DNA of 64,000 bases from an uncultured Actinomycetes bacterium (GTDB lineage Bacteria > Actinomycetota > Thermoleophilia > Gaiellales > JAICJC01), in contig CAWCDI010000001.1 of NCBI GenBank assembly GCA_963794415.1, forward strand, positions 830,775-894,774. Direction: 5' to 3'. Position numbers and translations under genes: made by a program. Below the pieces are notes generated by a model. That model searched no databases, was not told where the DNA came from, and saw only the letters and a list, made by a program, of their open reading frames with translations. Position 1 is the first letter of the stretch; each line of letters begins with the position of its first letter. Shown piece by piece: positions 3,412 through 61,143 of the stretch.

Positions 3412-4611
3412 ATGCACACTACGACCATGATCATCGTGGGGGTGTGCGGCGGGATCGCGGCGTACAAGGCGTGCGAGCTCGTCCGGGTGCTGGTCGGAGC
3501 AGGGCATGACGTGCAGGTGATCCAGACGCCTGACTCGCGGCGCTTCGTTGGTCCCACGACGTTTGCAGCCCTCTCCCGCCGGCCGGTGCTGACCGACGAC
3601 GGAAGCGACGTCTTTCCCCATCTGGAGGCCTCTGCGCAGGCAGCGCTCCTCTGCATCGCGCCACTCACCGCTACCACCATGGCCCGCATGGCCCACGGCG
3701 AGGCCTCGAACGTCCTGACGGCAACCGCGCTCGCGTTCACCGGGCCGGTCATCGCCGCCCCGGCCATGAACCCGCGCATGTGGCTCGCTCCCGCGACCCA
3801 GGAGAACGCCGCGCTGCTGCTTACCCGCGGGGTGGAGTTCGTCGGCCCCGCGCACGGCGACACCGCCGAGGGCGAGATCGGCGTCGGCCGCATGGCCGAG
3901 CCCGATGCGATCGCCGCGGCGGTGGGCAACCGGATCGAGTCGAGCCGCGCCCTCGACGGCAAGCGCGTGCTCGTGACCGCCGGCGGCACGCGTGAGGCGC
4001 TCGACGCCGTGCGGTACGTGGGCAACCGCTCGAGCGGCAAGATGGGCGCCGCGGTCGCCGACGAGGCGGCCCGCAGGGGCGCCGACGTGACGCTGATCCG
4101 GGCCGGGGCGGCTGTGGCTCCCAGCGCCGGGATGCGCGTGCTGCACGCGGAGTCGGCGCAGGATCTCGAGCGGGTGACGCTGGCGGAGGCCGCGAACGCC
4201 GACATCGTGGTCATGTCGGCTGCCGTCGCCGACTACCGGCCCGTCTCGGCCGACTCCGGGAAGCGCACGAAGTCGGGCGACCGCTGGCTGGTCGAGCTCG
4301 AGCCCACCACCGACATCCTGGCGCGGCTCGGTGAGCTCCGCGGGCCGGGCCAGCTCCTGATCGGCTTTGCCGCCGAGCATGGCGACGGCGCGGGAGAGCG
4401 GGCCCGTGCGAAGCTTCAGCGCAAGGGAGCCGACATGATCGTCATGAACGACGTGAGCCGTCCCGGGATCGGCTTCGACGCAGAGTCCAACGAGGTCACG
4501 CTCATCACTCCCGACGGCGAGCAGCACGTTTCCCGCAGGTCGAAGCAGGCGTGCGCGTCTGCGATGTGGGATGCGGTCCAGCGATCCGTTCGCATGGGTG
4601 CGACCGTATAA
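3412..4611 (+). CDS. coaBC: bifunctional phosphopantothenoylcysteine decarboxylase / phosphopantothenate-cysteine ligase
   Basis: N-terminal flavoprotein motif GVCGGIAAYK, C-terminal CoaB motifs ..GNRSSGKMG.. and AAVADYRP. 399 aa. Confidence 0.95.
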   Translation: MHTTTMIIVGVCGGIAAYKACELVRVLVGAGHDVQVIQTPDSRRFVGPTTFAALSRRPVLTDDGSDVFPHLEASAQAALLCIAPLTATTMARMAHGEASNVLTATALAFTGPVIAAPAMNPRMWLAPATQENAALLLTRGVEFVGPAHGDTAEGEIGVGRMAEPDAIAAAVGNRIESSRALDGKRVLVTAGGTREALDAVRYVGNRSSGKMGAAVADEAARRGADVTLIRAGAAVAPSAGMRVLHAESAQDLERVTLAEAANADIVVMSAAVADYRPVSADSGKRTKSGDRWLVELEPTTDILARLGELRGPGQLLIGFAAEHGDGAGERARAKLQRKGADMIVMNDVSRPGIGFDAESNEVTLITPDGEQHVSRRSKQACASAMWDAVQRSVRMGATV

Positions 4612-6857: not shown

Positions 6858-9186
6858 CCGCGCGCTCCAGACCGGCCCGTGGGTGGCGCTCGTCGCGCTC
6901 GTGGCCGTGGGCGGATGGCACTGGGCGCGCATCGAGAGCCCGCGGATCCCCGTGATCGAGATGCTCGCGATGTGCGCCATCGTCCTTGCGCCGACGCTCG
7001 TCGCCCAGATCTGGGGGCGGGTCGCGGGCATCGTCGCGGCCGTGATCGCCGTTCCCGTGGCGCTCGGTGCGGCCAGCGGCATGTGGCCCGGCAGCTCGGG
7101 CCGCCACAGCTACGTCCCCGCCGTCGCGCACGCCGTGAACGACGGAGCCCACAACTGGTTCAACGCGACCACCCCCTTCGACTACAGCCGGTTCGGCACG
7201 GTCGATGTCGATGCTCGCCTCCTCTTCATGGTGATCGTCGGGGTGCTGGGATGGACGCTCGTCCTGCGGCGCTGGACGGTGGTCTCCATCGCCCTTGCCC
7301 TGATCCTCTTCGCGTTCCCCTCGACGGTGCTCGATCTGAGCCATCCGTGGCTTCGGGCGGCGTTCTTCCTGGCGGCGGCGCTCGTGACGCTTCGGCTGGT
7401 GCCCGTTCACGCCATCGGCGGAGGCGGCTCCAGCCAGGCATGGGCGCTCGGGACGGCCGTGGTGGTGCTGGGACTGGTCGTCTCGGCCCTGCCCGGCGTG
7501 AACAAGGGCGCATTCATCGGCTGGCACGAGTGGGATCCGCTGGCGAGCGCGGTGGCGCCGCGGAGCCTGTCCTACGTGTGGAATGAGTCGTACAAGCCGC
7601 TGCACTGGCACGGCAAGCCGACCACCGTCCTGAACGTCTGGGCCCAGAAGCCGTCCTACTGGAAGCTCGGGACGCTCGAGACGTTCAAGGAAGGGCGCTG
7701 GACCGAGAACACCTATCCCATCACCAACGGCCTTGGCACGCCCGAGAACGGCGCGCTCTCGGTGCCGTCGCGCCGGCTCGCCGCGAAGGTGCAGAACCCG
7801 TCGCGCAAGGCGATCTCGACCGTGCGCGTGCAGGTCGAGGCGCTGGCCGACCGCCACCTCGCCACGTCGGTGCAGCCCATCAAGTGGATCGCCCCTTCCG
7901 ACACGCCGTTCACGATCAACACCGACTCGTCGGCCGAGGCCGACAGCGCCCTTGCGCGCGGCACCACGTACTCCTCGGTGGTCTATGCGGCCGACCCGAC
8001 GCCCAAGCAGCTTGCCAACGCCGGCACGGGCTTCCCGCGGCTGGTCGATCAGGATCTGACCGTCGGCGACGTCCGGATGGAGCCCTTCCCGGCCGACAAC
8101 ACCGCCGGGGCATCCGAGGCGCTGGCGCCGATGACCGATCTGATCACGGCCTCAAACCAGGTGTGGCACGCCTCCGGGGCCGACCAGGATCTGACGGAGT
8201 ACGCAGCGGCCGTTGACGTCGAGGCCTACTTCCGCAGCAAGGTCTTCACGTACGACCTCACGCCGAAGTTCTCCGGCGGATCGCCGATCCTCGCCCAGTT
8301 CATGCTCACCGGCCACAAGGGCTACTGCCAGATGTTCTCGGGCTCGATGGCCCTCGTCCTGCGCCTGCACGGCATCCCGGCCCGGGTGGCGTTCGGGTTC
8401 ACCACGGGGCAGGCGCCGGCCACGCTGGGAGCGCCGTACGTCGTGAGCGATCGCGATGCGCACGCCTGGGTCGAGGTGTTCTTCCCGAAGCTCGGCTGGC
8501 AGCCGTTCGACCCGACCCCGTCGCGCCACCTGCCCGAGCAGGCCTCGGCGTCCAACCCGGGCTGGAAGACGACGGCGGCAAAGACGCAGTACACGAGGGG
8601 GAACGGCCCCGCCGGGGCGGCGGTCAGCGGCGTCACGCCCCAGAACCACGGCGGGTCGAAGCCCGGGCTCCAGCTGGGCGGCAAGGGCGGCGTCGATCCC
8701 GGGCGCTCGGGAGGCGCGAAGCCGACGGCCTCGTTTACCGCCAAGGCGCCGTCGTCGGGGCATGGCTTCTTCGCGTGGCTCTTCGTGCTCGCTGCGGGCC
8801 TCGTGATCCTGGTGGGCGCCGTCAAGTTCGCCGCGGTCAGGTGGCGGTACCTGCGCCGCGGGCCGCGCGCGCAGGCGGCTGCCGCCTACCGTGAGCTCGC
8901 CACCTTCGTCGGCGATCAGGGCATCGCGGACTCACCGGAGCGTACGTTCGAGGATCTCTCGGGCGAGATCTCCCGGGTGTTCGGGGTGGACGCCTCGGAG
9001 TTCGCAGACCATGCCAGCCGCGCCCGGTACGCGCCGGCGGAGCAGGCAGCGGAGGCGAGCCGCTCGATCCGCGGCGATCTGCGCGGGGTCAAACGGGGCA
9101 TCCGCCGCGAGCTCTCGCTGCGCGACCGGTTCACGGGAGCCCTCCGCGTGCGCTCGGCGCTCGCGCAGATCACCAGCCTGGAGTGA
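6850..9186 (+). CDS. transglutaminase-like domain membrane protein (TgpA-like)
   Basis: Polytopic N-terminus. Transglutaminase core: Cys in GYCQMFS, His in DAHAWVEVF, Asp in QPFDPTP. Gly/Pro/Lys-rich linker and a terminal TM helix. Overlaps the DUF58 gene by 8 nt. Confidence 0.85.
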   Translation: MRSRALQTGPWVALVALVAVGGWHWARIESPRIPVIEMLAMCAIVLAPTLVAQIWGRVAGIVAAVIAVPVALGAASGMWPGSSGRHSYVPAVAHAVNDGAHNWFNATTPFDYSRFGTVDVDARLLFMVIVGVLGWTLVLRRWTVVSIALALILFAFPSTVLDLSHPWLRAAFFLAAALVTLRLVPVHAIGGGGSSQAWALGTAVVVLGLVVSALPGVNKGAFIGWHEWDPLASAVAPRSLSYVWNESYKPLHWHGKPTTVLNVWAQKPSYWKLGTLETFKEGRWTENTYPITNGLGTPENGALSVPSRRLAAKVQNPSRKAISTVRVQVEALADRHLATSVQPIKWIAPSDTPFTINTDSSAEADSALARGTTYSSVVYAADPTPKQLANAGTGFPRLVDQDLTVGDVRMEPFPADNTAGASEALAPMTDLITASNQVWHASGADQDLTEYAAAVDVEAYFRSKVFTYDLTPKFSGGSPILAQFMLTGHKGYCQMFSGSMALVLRLHGIPARVAFGFTTGQAPATLGAPYVVSDRDAHAWVEVFFPKLGWQPFDPTPSRHLPEQASASNPGWKTTAAKTQYTRGNGPAGAAVSGVTPQNHGGSKPGLQLGGKGGVDPGRSGGAKPTASFTAKAPSSGHGFFAWLFVLAAGLVILVGAVKFAAVRWRYLRRGPRAQAAAAYRELATFVGDQGIADSPERTFEDLSGEISRVFGVDASEFADHASRARYAPAEQAAEASRSIRGDLRGVKRGIRRELSLRDRFTGALRVRSALAQITSLE

Positions 9187-9212: not shown

Positions 9213-9578
9213 ATGGGCACGAACACACACGAAGACACCTACGAGCTCTTCCAGAAGGGCCGGGAGCTGCTGTCCCAGGGCCACTGCGCCCAGGCGACGG
9301 TGTCGCTCGAGAAGGCCAAGCGCCGCGAGCCCGACAAGGCATCCATCCGCGAGGCGCTGGGCGTCGCATACCTGCGGTCGCGCCAGTACACCAGGGCAGC
9401 CGAGGAGTTCGAGTACATCCTCGAGTCGGCCCCGAGCGACCACTATGCGCACTACTGCCTGGGCCGCTGCCTGCAGCGGCTGGGTGAGCGCAAGTTCGCC
9501 CTCGGCCACTACAAGATGGCAGTCTGGCTGCGCCCCTCGGTGGACTACTACCAGAAGGCCGTTGACGATCTGAGCTGA
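9213..9578 (+). CDS. tetratricopeptide-repeat protein
   Basis: 121 aa with TPR-like A/Y/L periodicity (..ALGVAYLRSRQYTRAAEEFEYILESAPSDHYAHYCLGRCLQRLG..). Confidence 0.6.
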   Translation: MGTNTHEDTYELFQKGRELLSQGHCAQATVSLEKAKRREPDKASIREALGVAYLRSRQYTRAAEEFEYILESAPSDHYAHYCLGRCLQRLGERKFALGHYKMAVWLRPSVDYYQKAVDDLS

Positions 9579-9602
9579 TGCATGAGCGGTGCCGGGCACC
9601 GT

Positions 9603-10070
9603 TCATGCACGGCCGCCCCGCGTGGCCGAGTCGATCCAGATCGTGACCGGGCCGTCGTTCACCAGCGCTACCTGCATGTCTGCGCCGAACCGGCCCGTCT
9701 CGACCGGGATGCCGAGGCCGCGGAGGTCGGCCGCGAACTGCGCCACGAGCTGTTCGCCGAGCTCCGGCTCGGCGGCCGTCACGAAGCTCGGCCGGTTCCC
9801 GCGCGAGACGTCGCCGTAGAGCGTGAACTGCGAGACGCAGAGCACGCTTCCGCCGACCTGGGGGAGGGCCAGGTTCATCTTGCCGTCGGCGTCGCTGAAC
9901 ACGCGCAGGCGGGCCACCTTCCCGGCCATCCACGCGGCCTCCGCAGGCCCGTCGCCGGTGCCCGCCGCCAGCAGCACGAGCAAGCCCCGATCGATGGCTC
10001 CAAGCCGCTCTGGGCCGGAGTCCACGGCCGCTTCGGACACCCGCTGGATCAGCGCGCGCACGGAGCCCAC
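9603..10070 (-). CDS. dtd: D-aminoacyl-tRNA deacylase
   Basis: MRALIQRV.., ..SQFTLYGDVSRGNRPSF.., C-terminal NDGPVT. 155 aa. Confidence 0.9.
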   Translation of the reverse strand: MGSVRALIQRVSEAAVDSGPERLGAIDRGLLVLLAAGTGDGPAEAAWMAGKVARLRVFSDADGKMNLALPQVGGSVLCVSQFTLYGDVSRGNRPSFVTAAEPELGEQLVAQFAADLRGLGIPVETGRFGADMQVALVNDGPVTIWIDSATRGGRA

Positions 10071-56703: not shown

Positions 56704-56955
56704 ATGTGGATTGTCTGGGCGGCTCTACTCGGCTTGATGGTTGGTGCGATCGCTCGTCTGATCGTGCCCGGTGACCACCCGCGCGGGGTGCTGATCACCG
56801 TCGTGATCGGCATCGTCGGGGCGGAGCTCGCGACGATCGTGCTCCACATCGCCGGCCTGCGCGGCTCGGCGGGCCTTCTGGGCTCGGTGCTCGGCGCGGT
56901 GGTGCTGCTGCTGATCCTGCAGTCGCTCTCGAACCGCTCCCGCCCAGCGCACTGA
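56704..56955 (+). CDS. GlsB/YeaQ/YmgE-family small membrane protein
   Basis: 83 aa, 3 TM helices, ..LGLMVGAIARLIVPG..VIGIVGAELA.. pattern. Confidence 0.75.
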   Translation: MWIVWAALLGLMVGAIARLIVPGDHPRGVLITVVIGIVGAELATIVLHIAGLRGSAGLLGSVLGAVVLLLILQSLSNRSRPAH

Positions 56956-56984
56956 CGAGTACCGGTGGTGGTGAAGACCGGCTC

Positions 56985-57017
56985 TGAATAGACGGTGCCA
57001 GGCACTGGTTATTCACG
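56985..57017. repeat. left 33-bp inverted repeat (internally palindromic)
   Basis: TGAATAGACGGTGCCAGGCACTGGTTATTCACG. Its reverse complement matches 57638-57670 at 29/33 positions (hand alignment). Confidence 0.7.
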
Positions 57018-57030
57018 CTATGGTCGAACG

Positions 57031-57642
57031 GTGTGGTTCGATCACATCCCGTGGGCTGTCGCCGACCTCGACTCCGCGAGCGATGAGTTCCGGCGCCTTC
57101 ACGGACTTGGCTGGTCGGGCGAGGGGCGGCACCCCCAAGGCACGCTGACCCGAGTCATTCCGATCGCGCCGACGCAGTACATCGAGCTGCTCCAGGCCTA
57201 CGACACGTCGCTCGAGTGGGGTGCAGATGTGGCTGCGGCGGTCGCCCGGAGGGAGCCGCTGCTCGGATGGTCGATCGAGGTGGACGACATTGAGTCGGTG
57301 TCCTCGCGCACCGGTATCGCGATTCACGATGGAACCGTCGAGCTCGAGGACGGATCGCGTGGCGGCTGGAAGTCGGTCAGCCCCCAGGACGACGACCTGC
57401 CGTTCTTCATCCGATACGGCCGCTCTCATGGGGAGCGGGTCACCGGCAATCAGGAGCGATTCGCGGCGGCCGCACACACCTGTGACCCGGCGGGTATCAC
57501 CTGGGTCGAGGTCGGAGGCGACGAACCCGAGCTGCGCCGCTGGATCGGTGACACCGAGCTGGAAATACGATTCGTCGGCGGACGGCCGGGCCTGCACCGT
57601 TTTGCCGTGGGCACATCGGGCGGGGAGCTCGTGCTGCCGTGA
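57031..57642 (+). CDS. VOC/glyoxalase-like domain protein (hypothetical)
   Basis: ~203 aa, ..FDHIPWAVADLD..F..LG.. and ..ITWVEVGGD.. resemble a glyoxalase-like fold. Start GTG 57031 preferred; the longest-ORF start 56995 lies inside the left repeat. Confidence 0.55.
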   Translation: MWFDHIPWAVADLDSASDEFRRLHGLGWSGEGRHPQGTLTRVIPIAPTQYIELLQAYDTSLEWGADVAAAVARREPLLGWSIEVDDIESVSSRTGIAIHDGTVELEDGSRGGWKSVSPQDDDLPFFIRYGRSHGERVTGNQERFAAAAHTCDPAGITWVEVGGDEPELRRWIGDTELEIRFVGGRPGLHRFAVGTSGGELVLP

Positions 57643-57670
57643 ATATTTAGTGCCTGGCACCGTTTATTCA
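57638..57670. repeat. right 33-bp inverted repeat (internally palindromic)
   Basis: CGTGAATATTTAGTGCCTGGCACCGTTTATTCA. Contains the stop codon (57640-42) of the enclosed gene. Confidence 0.7.
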
Positions 57671-57688
57671 CCGGGTACAGTTCGGCGG

Positions 57689-59008
57689 ATGCGGACGTAC
57701 TCGGTCACAACCTTCGGCTGCCAGATGAACGTGCACGACTCCGAGCGCATCAAGGGCCTGCTCGAGTCGTCGGGGCTGGGGGAGGCGCAGGACGCCTCCG
57801 ACGCGGACGTCATCGTCTTCAACACGTGCACCATCCGCGAGAAGGCCGACGAGCGCCTCGTCCAGCACCTCATGAACGCGCGCGTCGCCAAGCAGCGCGA
57901 TCCCGACAAGCTCATCGTCGTCGGCGGCTGCTGGTCGGAGTCGATGAAGGACACGCTCTTCGAGGAGTACCCGTTCGTCGACTTCGCCTTCGGCCCGGGA
58001 AACATCCACCGCCTGGGCGAGTACATCACCGCCGGCGGCGCCATCCCGCGCGGGCACTTCTCCACGTTCGACAACTTTGCCGGCGAGCTGCCCCTCAAGC
58101 GCGACCGCGAGCACCAGGCCTGGCTCCAGATCTCGACCGGCTGCAACTGCAACTGCGCCTACTGCATCGTCCCCGCCGTCCGCGGCCGCGAGAACAGCCG
58201 CCTGCCGGCCGACCTGCTCGCCGAGGCTTCGGCGCTCGCCGATGACGGCGTCATCGAGCTCACGCTGCTCGGCCAGAACGTGAATGCCTACGGCCGCGAC
58301 CTGCGCCCGGCGATCGACACGAGCTTCGCGAAGCTCCTGCGCGGGCTCGACGCGATCGACGGCATCGGCCGCATCCGCTACACGAGCCCGCACCCCAAGG
58401 ACATGCGCGCCGACGTGATCGCCGCCATGGCCGAGTGCGACGCGGTGTGCGAGCAGCTGCACCTGCCGGTGCAGTCGGGCTCCACCCGCGTGCTCAAGGC
58501 CATGCGCCGCACCTACACCCGCGAGCGCTACATCAAGCTGGTCGGCGACATCCGCGCGGCCATGCCCCAGATCGCGCTCACCACCGACATCATCGTCGGC
58601 TTCCCGGGCGAGACCGACGCCGACTTCGAGGACACGCTCTCGCTCTACGACGAGATCGGCTACGACCACGCGTTCACCTTCGTGTTCTCGCCGCGCCGCG
58701 GCACCGAGGCCGCCCGGATGGACGACCAGGTGCCCGACGAGGTCAAGAAGGAGCGCATCCAGCGGCTCGTCGATCTGGTGCAGCACCACGCTGCGCTGCG
58801 AAACCAGGCCCTCATCGGCACCGTGCAGGAGGTGCTCGTCGAGGGGCCGAGCCGTACGGATCCCGAGGTGCTCCGCGGGCGCACGCGCGGCAACAAGGCC
58901 GTCAACTTCCACGGCGACGCGGCAGCGGGCGACCTCGTGGACGTGGTCATCGACCGCTCCACCAGCCAGACGCTGGCCGGCCGGGTGCACGCGCCCGCCG
59001 CGGTCTGA
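57689..59008 (+). CDS. miaB: tRNA (N6-isopentenyl adenosine(37)-C2)-methylthiotransferase
   Basis: ..TFGCQMNVHDSE.., radical-SAM CNCNCAYC, TRAM domain at the C-terminus. Start ATG 57689. Confidence 0.95.
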   Translation: MRTYSVTTFGCQMNVHDSERIKGLLESSGLGEAQDASDADVIVFNTCTIREKADERLVQHLMNARVAKQRDPDKLIVVGGCWSESMKDTLFEEYPFVDFAFGPGNIHRLGEYITAGGAIPRGHFSTFDNFAGELPLKRDREHQAWLQISTGCNCNCAYCIVPAVRGRENSRLPADLLAEASALADDGVIELTLLGQNVNAYGRDLRPAIDTSFAKLLRGLDAIDGIGRIRYTSPHPKDMRADVIAAMAECDAVCEQLHLPVQSGSTRVLKAMRRTYTRERYIKLVGDIRAAMPQIALTTDIIVGFPGETDADFEDTLSLYDEIGYDHAFTFVFSPRRGTEAARMDDQVPDEVKKERIQRLVDLVQHHAALRNQALIGTVQEVLVEGPSRTDPEVLRGRTRGNKAVNFHGDAAAGDLVDVVIDRSTSQTLAGRVHAPAAV

Positions 59009-59011
59009 TCA

Positions 59012-59914
59012 ATGCTGCCCGCAATCGCGATCTTCGGCCCGACGGCGTCGGGCAAGAGCGCGGTGGCACTCGAGCTGGCCACCCGGCTGAACGGCGAGAT
59101 CCTCTCGTGCGACGCCATGCAGGCCTACCGCGGCCTGCCTGTCCTCACCAACCAGCCGTCTGCCGCTGAGCTCGCCGCCGTGCGGCACCACCTGGTGGGC
59201 ATCTGGCCGCTGGGTCACGAGGGCTCGGTGGCCGAGTTCGGGGCGCTGGCACACGCAGCAGCCGACGACGTGATCGCCCGCGGGCGCCGGCCCGTGTTCG
59301 CAGGCGGCAGCGGCCTCTACCTGCGCGCTGCGGTCGGCGAGCTGCACGCCCGGCCGCAACCCGACCCGCGGCAGCGGGCCGAGATCGGCGCGCTCTACGA
59401 CCGCGATCCGGCCGCGGCGCACGCAAAGCTCCAGCTGGTGGATCCCGCGGTCGGAGCCGCCGTGCACCCCAACGACCGCCGGCGGGTGGTGAGGGGGCTC
59501 GAGCTGCACGCTGCGGGCACCAGCCTCGCGCCCGATGCCGACACCCTGTGGGCCCCGGACACCCGCGTGCCCACGGTGGCGATCGGCCTCGACCTGCCCC
59601 GCGAGACGGGCGACGAGCGGATCGCCGCCCGCACCCGGGCGATGTTCGAGGCCGGGGTGGAGGAGGAGGTGCGCGCGGCCCTTGCAGGCCACGAGCTCTC
59701 GCTCACCGCCGCGCGCATCCACGGCCTCCAGGACGTCACCGCGGTGCTCGCCGGCGAGATCGACCGCGCCGAGGCCATCCGCCGCCTCACCCTGCGCACG
59801 CGCCAGTACGCAAAGCGCCAGCGCACGTGGATGCGGCGGGTCGCGGGCATCACCGTGCTGGACGCCGACCGCCCCGCGGCGGCAGTCGCTGCCGACATCC
59901 AGGAGCTGCTGTGA
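59012..59914 (+). CDS. miaA: tRNA dimethylallyltransferase
   Basis: P-loop GPTASGKS, ..DAMQAYRGL..LTNQP.., ..YAKRQRTWMRR... Confidence 0.95.
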   Translation: MLPAIAIFGPTASGKSAVALELATRLNGEILSCDAMQAYRGLPVLTNQPSAAELAAVRHHLVGIWPLGHEGSVAEFGALAHAAADDVIARGRRPVFAGGSGLYLRAAVGELHARPQPDPRQRAEIGALYDRDPAAAHAKLQLVDPAVGAAVHPNDRRRVVRGLELHAAGTSLAPDADTLWAPDTRVPTVAIGLDLPRETGDERIAARTRAMFEAGVEEEVRAALAGHELSLTAARIHGLQDVTAVLAGEIDRAEAIRRLTLRTRQYAKRQRTWMRRVAGITVLDADRPAAAVAADIQELL

Positions 59915-60315: not shown

Positions 60316-60339
60316 GCGATCTGGATAAGCTGCGGCCCC

Positions 60340-61143
60340 ATGCGATTCGAGAAGTTCCAGGCCGCCGGCAACGCCTATCTGGTGATGGAGGGCGAGGGCC
60401 CGGAGGGCGGCATCCCCGAGCGGCACGTCCAGCGCATCTGCCACGCCGACTACGGCGCGGGCTCCGACGGCATCCTCGAGATCCTGCCGTCGCAGGTGGC
60501 CCACGCCCGCGTGCGCATCTACAACCCCGACGGCGGCCAGGCCGAGTTCTCGGGCAACGGCAGCCGCATCGCAGTCGCCTACCTCTGCCGCCGCGACGGC
60601 CTCGCGGGAGTCAAGATCGAGACGGTGAAGGGCATCGTCGACGGCGCGGTTGACGGCACCTCGGTCACCATCGATGCCGGAGTCGCGGCGCTCGACGGCC
60701 CCGACCACGTCAAGGGCGACGGCCCGCCGCCCGCCGCGGCCTATACCTACGTGAACGTGGGCAATCCCCACTGCGTGATGCGCGCCGACGACGTCGACGA
60801 CCTCGACCTCCCGGCCATCGGGCCTGCGATCGAGCACCACAGCTGGTTTCCCAACCGCACCAACGTGGAGTTCTACCGGCCGCTCGGGCCCAACGACATC
60901 CGCATGCGGGTGTGGGAGCGCGGCGCGGGCGAGACGCTCTCGTCGGGCAGCGGATCCACCGCCGCTGCAGTCGCGGCCGTGACCGCCGGCGACGTGGCGA
61001 GCCCTGTGACAGTCCATACCGACGGAGGCAACCTGGTGATCGAGATCGATGACGCGCTCAACATCCGCATGACCGGGCCTGTAGAGCCCGTGCTCGCCGG
61101 CACCTTCGACGCGGTGTTCGTCGCAGGGCTGGAGCGGCTCTGA
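60340..61143 (+). CDS. dapF: diaminopimelate epimerase
   Basis: ..FQAAGNAYLV.., active-site contexts ..FSGNGSR.. / ..VGNPHCVM.. and ..SSGSGSTAAA... 267 aa. Confidence 0.85.
   Translation: MRFEKFQAAGNAYLVMEGEGPEGGIPERHVQRICHADYGAGSDGILEILPSQVAHARVRIYNPDGGQAEFSGNGSRIAVAYLCRRDGLAGVKIETVKGIVDGAVDGTSVTIDAGVAALDGPDHVKGDGPPPAAAYTYVNVGNPHCVMRADDVDDLDLPAIGPAIEHHSWFPNRTNVEFYRPLGPNDIRMRVWERGAGETLSSGSGSTAAAVAAVTAGDVASPVTVHTDGGNLVIEIDDALNIRMTGPVEPVLAGTFDAVFVAGLERL

Follow-up and report, generated by a model that had tools for sequence, protein, structure and literature searches.

TRIT, described in Mycobacterium with RNIE, comprises 147 palindromic copies that are mostly bidirectional and lie narrowly around position –8 relative to stop codons (Gardner et al. 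2011, PMC3152330). It is the closest known system to the repeats analyzed here, two 31-nt palindromes of the form TGAATA-N4-GTGCC-N-GGCAC-N4-TATTCA at 56985–57015 and 57640–57670 of a 64,000-nt (64-kb) stretch of DNA, hereafter the window, from an uncultured Actinomycetes bacterium of the order Gaiellales (contig CAWCDI010000001.1, positions 830,775 to 894,774). The palindromes bracket a single VOC-superfamily gene (VOC below). The initial annotation proposed that they are the ends of a cassette or miniature inverted-repeat transposable element (MITE), a pair of operators, or members of a hairpin family resembling repetitive extragenic palindromic (REP) elements or terminators. Our family data support the last option. 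We suggest that the repeats are probably dispersed, lineage-specific (Gaiellales/Thermoleophilia), bidirectional terminator-like hairpins of the REP/TRIT type at gene 3' ends, termination being the part that we infer. Like TRIT, they are conserved, dispersed palindromic hairpins of high-GC actinobacterial genomes, are tied to gene termini and overlap the ends of coding sequences. In contrast to TRIT, which has been reported only in Mycobacterium, the family belongs to Gaiellales/Thermoleophilia and has another sequence.

A scan for the exact 22-base pattern of the palindrome, over one genome per GTDB species and in 8-kb stretches, yielded at least 115 copies in at least 108 stretches from 19 metagenome-assembled genomes (MAGs). 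At least 26 copies are found in one MAG and at least 11 in a complete 3.79-Mb chromosome. According to the initial annotation, many copies after unrelated genes would indicate a REP or terminator family; in the 19 genomes more than 100 gene ends, unrelated to one another, indeed each have a single copy of the 31-mer, which hence is not a cassette boundary. All but one of the MAGs are labeled Actinomycetes, Actinomycetota, Gaiellales or Thermoleophilia. The remaining exact copy comes from a contig of 1.6 kb that was assigned to 'Candidatus Limnocylindrales' (Chloroflexota; locus L094, JBBRIM010000396.1). Since its flanks are 81–97% identical to a locus of a Gaiellales-like MAG (L031), this contig is probably mis-binned. 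Searches of Rfam matched nothing for the window copies and returned just noise for a perfect copy (E > 1), and we found no description of the hairpin family in the literature; it is apparently undescribed.

The hairpin spans about 31–33 nt, with a 15-bp stem made of AT-rich outer arms (TGAATA/TATTCA), a complementary N4 segment and the core GTGCC-W-GGCAC. The N4 segment varies and remains complementary in most copies (AAAG/CTTT, AATG/CATT, ATTG/CAAT, ACCG/CGGT, TCCG/CGGA). We found that 94% of the cells pair in an alignment of 118 sequences versus 87% in shuffles (none of 500 reached the observed value), with three variable pairs carrying AU, UA, CG and UG types. Compensatory changes also occur in variants met by chance, namely a 29-nt form with N3, a form with a GGGCC/GGCCC core and a diverged copy at 9579–9609 of the window. 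Perfect copies fold with –23 to –27 kcal/mol (z from –4.7 to –7). Written as RNA, the commonest variants have an A-tract, a GGUGCC/GGCACC stem and a U-rich tail (UUUUAUU, AUUUAUU), the layout of an intrinsic terminator working both ways. In the columns flanking the palindrome G is preferred before it and C after it, and there is otherwise no conservation.

With a covariance model derived from the family alignment, exactly three members are detected in the window, scoring 52, 46 and 28 bits:

56985–57015, unstranded: left hairpin copy, TGAATAGACGGTGCCAGGCACTGGTTATTCA (covariance model, 45.9 bits).
57640–57670, unstranded: right hairpin copy, TGAATATTTAGTGCCTGGCACCGTTTATTCA (covariance model, 52 bits).
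9579–9609, unstranded: diverged hairpin copy, TGCATGAGCGGTGCCGGGCACCGTTCATGCA (covariance model; position of an ortholog).

The two copies at VOC match the pattern at 22 of 22 specified bases. They had been described as an inverted pair (56985–57017 and 57638–57670) complementary at 29 of 33 positions, each repeat itself being palindromic. Both observations were reproduced, the former as 88% over 33 nt and the latter through the match to the 31-nt pattern, and the reported direct identity of 25/33 was recomputed as 25/32. The statement that no third copy exists holds for the exact motif: a scan of the window allowing up to 3 mismatches returned no copy beyond the two (0 expected, 100 shuffles), and the 11-nt core alone is not over-represented there (10 matches versus 6.7 expected). 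It does not hold for the diverged member at 9579–9609, which scores 28 bits (E = 3e–6) with the next best window match at 11 bits. This third copy lies between convergent genes (9213–9578, plus strand; 9603–10070, minus strand) and its position is orthologous to that of a canonical copy in locus L026. Its arms are doubly changed with pairing kept (TGAATA to TGCATG together with TATTCA to CATGCA).

The left copy starts 29 nt after the stop codon of a glsB-like gene and ends 15 nt before the VOC start. Its N4 arms pair imperfectly (plus strand: G·U, A/G, C-G, G·U), and it folds as RNA with –20.9 kcal/mol (z = –3.5). The right copy begins with the VOC stop codon, TGA at 57640–57642 being its nt 1–3, and is followed at 5 nt by a putative miaB –10 element and at 18 nt by the miaB ATG. 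Each of the two has 5 U in the 8 nt past the GC core (plus strand). Both copies behave as typical, rather degenerate members of the hairpin family.

Family members concentrate where genes end. Among 118 copies, 56 lie between convergent genes (19% of intergenic regions in the background), 38 between tandem genes (background 64%) and 7 between divergent genes (background 17%); 3 are intragenic and 14 fall at a locus edge. Expressed as fractions, convergent contexts are strongly overrepresented (55% versus 19%) and divergent ones make up 7% (chi-square test, P-value = 2e–19). The palindrome carries stop codons at both ends, with TGA at nt 1–3 and often TAA or TAG at nt 5–7, on either strand. When the 162 facing gene 3' ends were considered, 50 were found to stop at nt 1–3 (TGA) and 33 at nt 5–7, so that the palindrome's own TGA or TAA is the stop codon for 83 (51%), and a further 34 lie 0–20 nt from the palindrome. 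Complete genes abutting copies (79) match 96 Pfam families without a functional theme; the strong Pfam scores indicate that the gene calls are real, and the gene caller reproduces the gene order of the window. Convergent spacers without a palindrome are short, with a median of 6 nt and 34% overlapping (loci L011–L118). Hence, most convergent pairs have no room for a terminator unless a palindrome is present.

Copies are also oriented, as seen across all 118 (loci L008–L118 and the window). Where a single gene abuts the palindrome, A outnumbers T by 39 to 15 as the central base on the sense strand of that gene (P-value = 0.0015). This polarity suggests that spreading includes an oriented step at the level of DNA, or else that the replication strand has an effect.

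The neighborhood of the two VOC-flanking copies consists of the following features:

56704–56955, plus strand: gene for a GlsB/YeaQ/YmgE-like small membrane protein, 83 aa (profiles; synteny in L007 and L008).
56956–56984, plus strand: 29-nt spacer from the glsB stop to the left copy (sequence; comparison with L008).
57019–57024, plus strand: putative –10 element TATGGT (TANNNT), 6 nt before the VOC GTG (sequence; analogy with miaB).
57031–57642, plus strand: Glyoxalase_3 (VOC-superfamily) gene, 203 aa, GTG start (PF13468, E = 1.6e–20).
57676–57681, plus strand: putative –10 element TACAGT, 7 nt before the miaB ATG (conserved in relatives).
57689–59008, plus strand: miaB, tRNA methylthiotransferase, conserved downstream neighbor (TIGR01574, E = 3e–137).

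As noted in the initial annotation, exactly one gene is enclosed and its stop lies inside the right repeat; profile matches bear out the two neighbors named there, the glsB-like gene and miaB. Profile scores of the glsB-like gene are below cut-offs for both Transgly_assoc (E = 3e–4) and PRK10457 of NCBIfam (E = 5.5e–6). It is the final gene of an upstream fae / MR-MLE / glsB run. Beyond miaB the order continues with miaA and dapF, and other neighbors are an ABC transporter, Fae and MR/MLE genes.

The MiaB protein groups the window with Gaiellales-like soil MAGs. We compared the glsB–miaB junction, as had been recommended, in three relatives, and VOC is absent from all of them. L007 (MiaB identity 88%) has a 10-bp spacer and no palindrome, and L009 (87%) likewise has no palindrome. 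L008 (87%) has one perfect palindrome, TGAATAATTGGTGCCAGGCACCAATTATTCA, whose first TGA is the glsB stop and whose position relative to the miaB –10 element and ATG equals that of the right window copy. Palindrome presence is therefore polymorphic among these relatives. Four pairs of filled and empty orthologs were compared: L093/L020 versus L049, L049 versus L093, L102/L010 versus the window and L007 (upstream of dapF), and L008 versus L007. In all four the terminal TGA/TCA of the palindrome coincides with the stop codon of the empty ortholog and protein lengths are unchanged. Palindrome presence thus varies between close relatives. The palindrome–VOC–palindrome layout recurs in a second MAG, 99.4% identical (L001). 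Its left palindrome has a G/T difference at window position 57009. Indels of 1–2 nt in L001 (window 58203 and 59671–59672) split miaB into two calls and lengthen miaA to 433 aa, and they probably stem from errors in the assembly of this MAG.

On this basis we propose that RNA of either direction would fold into a hairpin with an A-tract, a GC stem and a U-rich tail, which may terminate transcription in both directions and/or stabilize 3' ends. In the window, the transcript of the fae / MR-MLE / glsB run would end at the left copy and that of VOC at the right one. VOC would then be bracketed because each copy marks a gene end, not because the two are termini of one element. Each copy may also insulate the –10-only, leaderless-type promoter that follows it (of VOC and miaB, respectively) from read-through. 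Behind each of these two palindromes a TANNNT hexamer begins within 3–5 nt, with a start codon 6–7 nt later, and at the miaB –10 position L007, L008 and L009 have TAGAGT or TAGTCT. TANNNT occurs 5–8 nt before an in-frame start at 44 of 81 miaB loci versus 0.6% of shuffles. A TANNNT hexamer is also seen at dapF (TAAGCT, 60326–60342), and the hexamers of VOC, miaB and dapF lie 6–8 nt before the start. Judged from the sequence, this suggests a set of leaderless-type promoters at the three genes. A consensus promoter scan of the window copies and a perfect copy found nothing. In a metagenome scan of the miaB locus, which covered relatives of up to 81% identity among the matches listed, no palindrome was seen upstream of miaB. 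Candidate routes for the spread of the copies would be Y1/RAYT-like transposition and gene conversion or recombination.

Several observations weigh against the terminator-like reading. A consensus terminator scan called neither the window copies nor a perfect copy, since the T-rich segment is counted as stem, paired with the A-rich 5' arm; for this reason the scan is uninformative on these hairpins. Among variants, the number of U in the 8 nt past the GC core ranges from 3 to 6, with just 3–4 in some of them. By folding, the window copies rank among the worst-paired members of the family. Invariance of arms and core is true by construction in a collection made with an exact pattern, and the context statistics come from our own gene caller, based on GC content at third codon positions (GC3), not from curated annotation. 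As RNA, members of the asymmetric subfamily pair less well on the sense strand than on the opposite one (14:4), which speaks against a role in sense RNA only. Finally, two of the three window copies flank an atypical, lineage-specific gene, and the palindromes may be linked in some way to the insertion of VOC.

The best surviving alternative is a purely selfish mobile hairpin without terminator function, similar to REP elements or REPINs, copied by a Y1 enzyme (RAYT or IS200/IS605-type), inserted in orientation beside TGA and tolerated through its own stop codons. We consider it unlikely. Near-identical copies at many sites and the presence/absence differences between close relatives are in line with it, as are the filled and empty pairs, which show an insert of about 28 nt directly 3' of TGA, and the polarity bias toward the strand pairing worse as RNA. 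Doublets resembling bacterial interspersed mosaic elements (BIMEs) also fit. They are present at at least 7 sites (L016 at about 6925–7000, L038, L042, L045, L056, L110 and L116), where a 29-nt variant, GTGAATAACGGTGCCWGGCACCGTTATTCAC, lies 13–16 nt from a 31-nt copy with unconserved spacers. Each unit of a doublet is itself palindromic, so an inverted doublet of the REPIN kind is indistinguishable from a tandem insertion. On the other side, a tblastn search with E. coli RayT gave no match with E < 1 in 1.31 Mb around the copies and a scan of the 847 kb surrounding 116 copies revealed no credible HUH motif, both being weak negatives. The flanking columns of the alignment hold no GTAG-type guide tetranucleotide at the 5' foot of the hairpin. 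Selection alone could produce the stop-codon coincidence, given the short native spacers (median 6 nt) and built-in stops, and maintenance of the structure is suggested by the diverged copy, which sits at an orthologous site and has kept pairing through compensatory changes. A weak RAYT match in L106 turned out to be a spurious 59-aa open reading frame (ORF) and was discarded.

Mobility and terminator function may be combined. A tentative possibility, to which we give little weight, is that the hairpin is mobile, inserts in one orientation and seeks out stop codons: about 28 nt would be placed directly 3' of TGA by Y1-like, target-guided single-strand insertion, with TGA as the foot of the stem, and genes of the extremely compact Gaiellales genomes would gain a stop codon plus a two-way terminator while their proteins keep their length. 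Copies already in place could then serve as recombination portals for single genes such as VOC.

Two further kinds of sequence accompany some copies. A larger repeat (...ggtgga-PAL-cggccgcaggccg...) surrounds copies in L013 (4411/4741), L080 (4920/5149) and L112 (620/849), and also in L036, L081 and L111; it recurs at a spacing of 229–330 bp and suggests a longer composite or tandem element. Other hairpins with an A-tract and a GC stem (e.g. AAAAGGGGTCTGACCCC) lie beside copies in L025 (about 1390–1415), L107 (about 4200–4225) and L098 (about 2245–2270), and several families of conserved terminator-like hairpins may exist in these genomes.

The cassette reading holds that palindrome–VOC–palindrome was acquired as one unit, through a circular VOC-plus-palindrome intermediate recombining with a resident palindrome or through an IS200/IS605-like element. 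It starts from an atypical gene. VOC has a GC3 of 0.81, versus about 0.90–0.97 in most genes, and ranks third lowest among the 65 predicted genes; these codon statistics, called for in the initial annotation, agree with its hand count of 1 codon in 5 ending in A or T. Low GC3, together with the absence of VOC from the junction in relatives, suggests that VOC is a lineage-specific insertion between glsB and miaB, probably a recent one at a junction where a hairpin was present before or arrived at the same time. One or both boundaries of the insertion coincide with a palindrome, and a role of the palindromes in recombination at the insertion is possible. Also in keeping with a cassette, relatives of 87–88% MiaB identity include one with a single palindrome in the empty junction, both copies abut VOC with its stop inside the right one, and the 64 kb contain only three family members, two of which flank the gene. 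By our estimate, the chance that two of three window copies adjoin is about 0.1 (about 64 intergenic sites), and so the bracketing of VOC is only mildly surprising.

Against these points, the bracketed unit is confined to this species (two MAGs, 99.4% identical), and neither a transposase nor an integrase is present nearby. The flanks contain no target-site duplication, as had been stated initially. Homologs of VOC are rare, with 6 among 5.8 billion proteins, and the non-identical ones are 55–60% identical. The four whose contigs were examined stand next to GCV_T or acetyltransferase genes and have no flanking palindromes; the contigs of P0002 and P0005 were outside this context comparison. 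Exact copies that share a locus are 183–330 bp or 3–7 kb apart, which is not single-gene spacing. On the left, the spacer of 29 nt continues the glsB frame up to the palindrome's TAG and is unlike the product of a simple crossover within a palindrome. It is missing in L008, where the palindrome directly abuts glsB. Overall, acquisition as a cassette appears improbable.

Read through the glsB TGA (56953), this spacer gives 11 sense codons (RVPVVVKTGSE) up to the TAG stop at nt 5–7 of the left palindrome, a register used by a third of family neighbors. The in-frame spacer may be a relic of an ORF end; the C-termini of the GCV_T proteins encoded beside VOC homologs do not resemble its peptide.

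The weakest alternative, and a very improbable one, is a pair of operators for a dimeric transcription factor controlling the VOC and miaB promoters, each located 3–5 nt upstream of a –10-like element: dyadic symmetry with sub-elements at 10-bp spacing, overlap of both copies with the –35 region of the putative leaderless promoters and four GTGCCWGGCAC cores upstream of an Nramp gene in L005 speak for it, but copies lie mostly between convergent genes at gene 3' ends and rarely (7%) between divergent ones, the neighboring genes are functionally unrelated, copies are near-identical and not degenerate with N4 arms covarying even within one genome, and most miaB relatives keep the –10/start arrangement without a palindrome. 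The four cores in L005 (3333–3449) lack TGAATA arms and lie between mgtE-like and Nramp genes; the contig also has a VOC homolog. A sigma-54 promoter (TGGCAC-N5-ATTC) was dropped because the –12 element does not fit and the copies are at 3' ends, and a Xer/dif-like module because the arm, central region, arm layout is absent.

Identification of the repeats as a dispersed family removes a false lead: they are not cassette ends, and VOC should not be annotated as a mobile unit on that basis. It documents a REP/TRIT-like family in an abundant, uncultured order of soil actinobacteria and gives annotators a marker of gene ends. A portable module of stop codon plus hairpin would explain how transcription units are punctuated at a convergent spacing of about 6 nt, and the polarity and stop-codon coincidence can be used to ask if REP-like elements can target stop codons.

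Several known systems share parts of this picture. A single gene flanked by imperfect palindromes that fold as hairpins is also characteristic of integron attC sites and IS200/IS605 elements. However, there is no integrase, attI, cassette array, tnpA or tnpB at the locus, the palindromes stand singly at more than 100 unrelated sites and the bracketed unit is unique. A MITE or composite transposon was rejected since there is no target-site duplication, the unit occurs only in this species and the repeats are single elsewhere. Inverted pairs of the Neisseria DNA uptake sequence (DUS) and the Pasteurellaceae uptake signal sequence (USS) are likewise over-represented motifs that form hairpins after genes and double as terminators. 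They occur about once per kb, whereas the Gaiellales hairpins occur about once per 20–100 kb and have a variable N4. With REP/BIME/REPIN elements the family shares short imperfect palindromes in many extragenic copies, placed after genes and between convergent genes, and presence/absence differences between relatives; its clusters and doublets are similar in appearance. In contrast to REPs, which lie downstream of stop codons and number in the hundreds, the Gaiellales copies overlap stop codons and number in the tens (a lower bound); no RAYT was found in up to 1.31 Mb around copies and no GTAG-like 5' tetranucleotide is seen. The family is not a demonstrated member of REP/BIME or of TRIT. In its position relative to stop codons it corresponds to TRIT, with 83 of 162 gene ends stopping within nt 1–7 of the palindrome and 34 more within 20 nt, and it differs from TRIT in that the stop codon sits in the stem itself, as TGA at nt 1–3 or TAA at nt 5–7.

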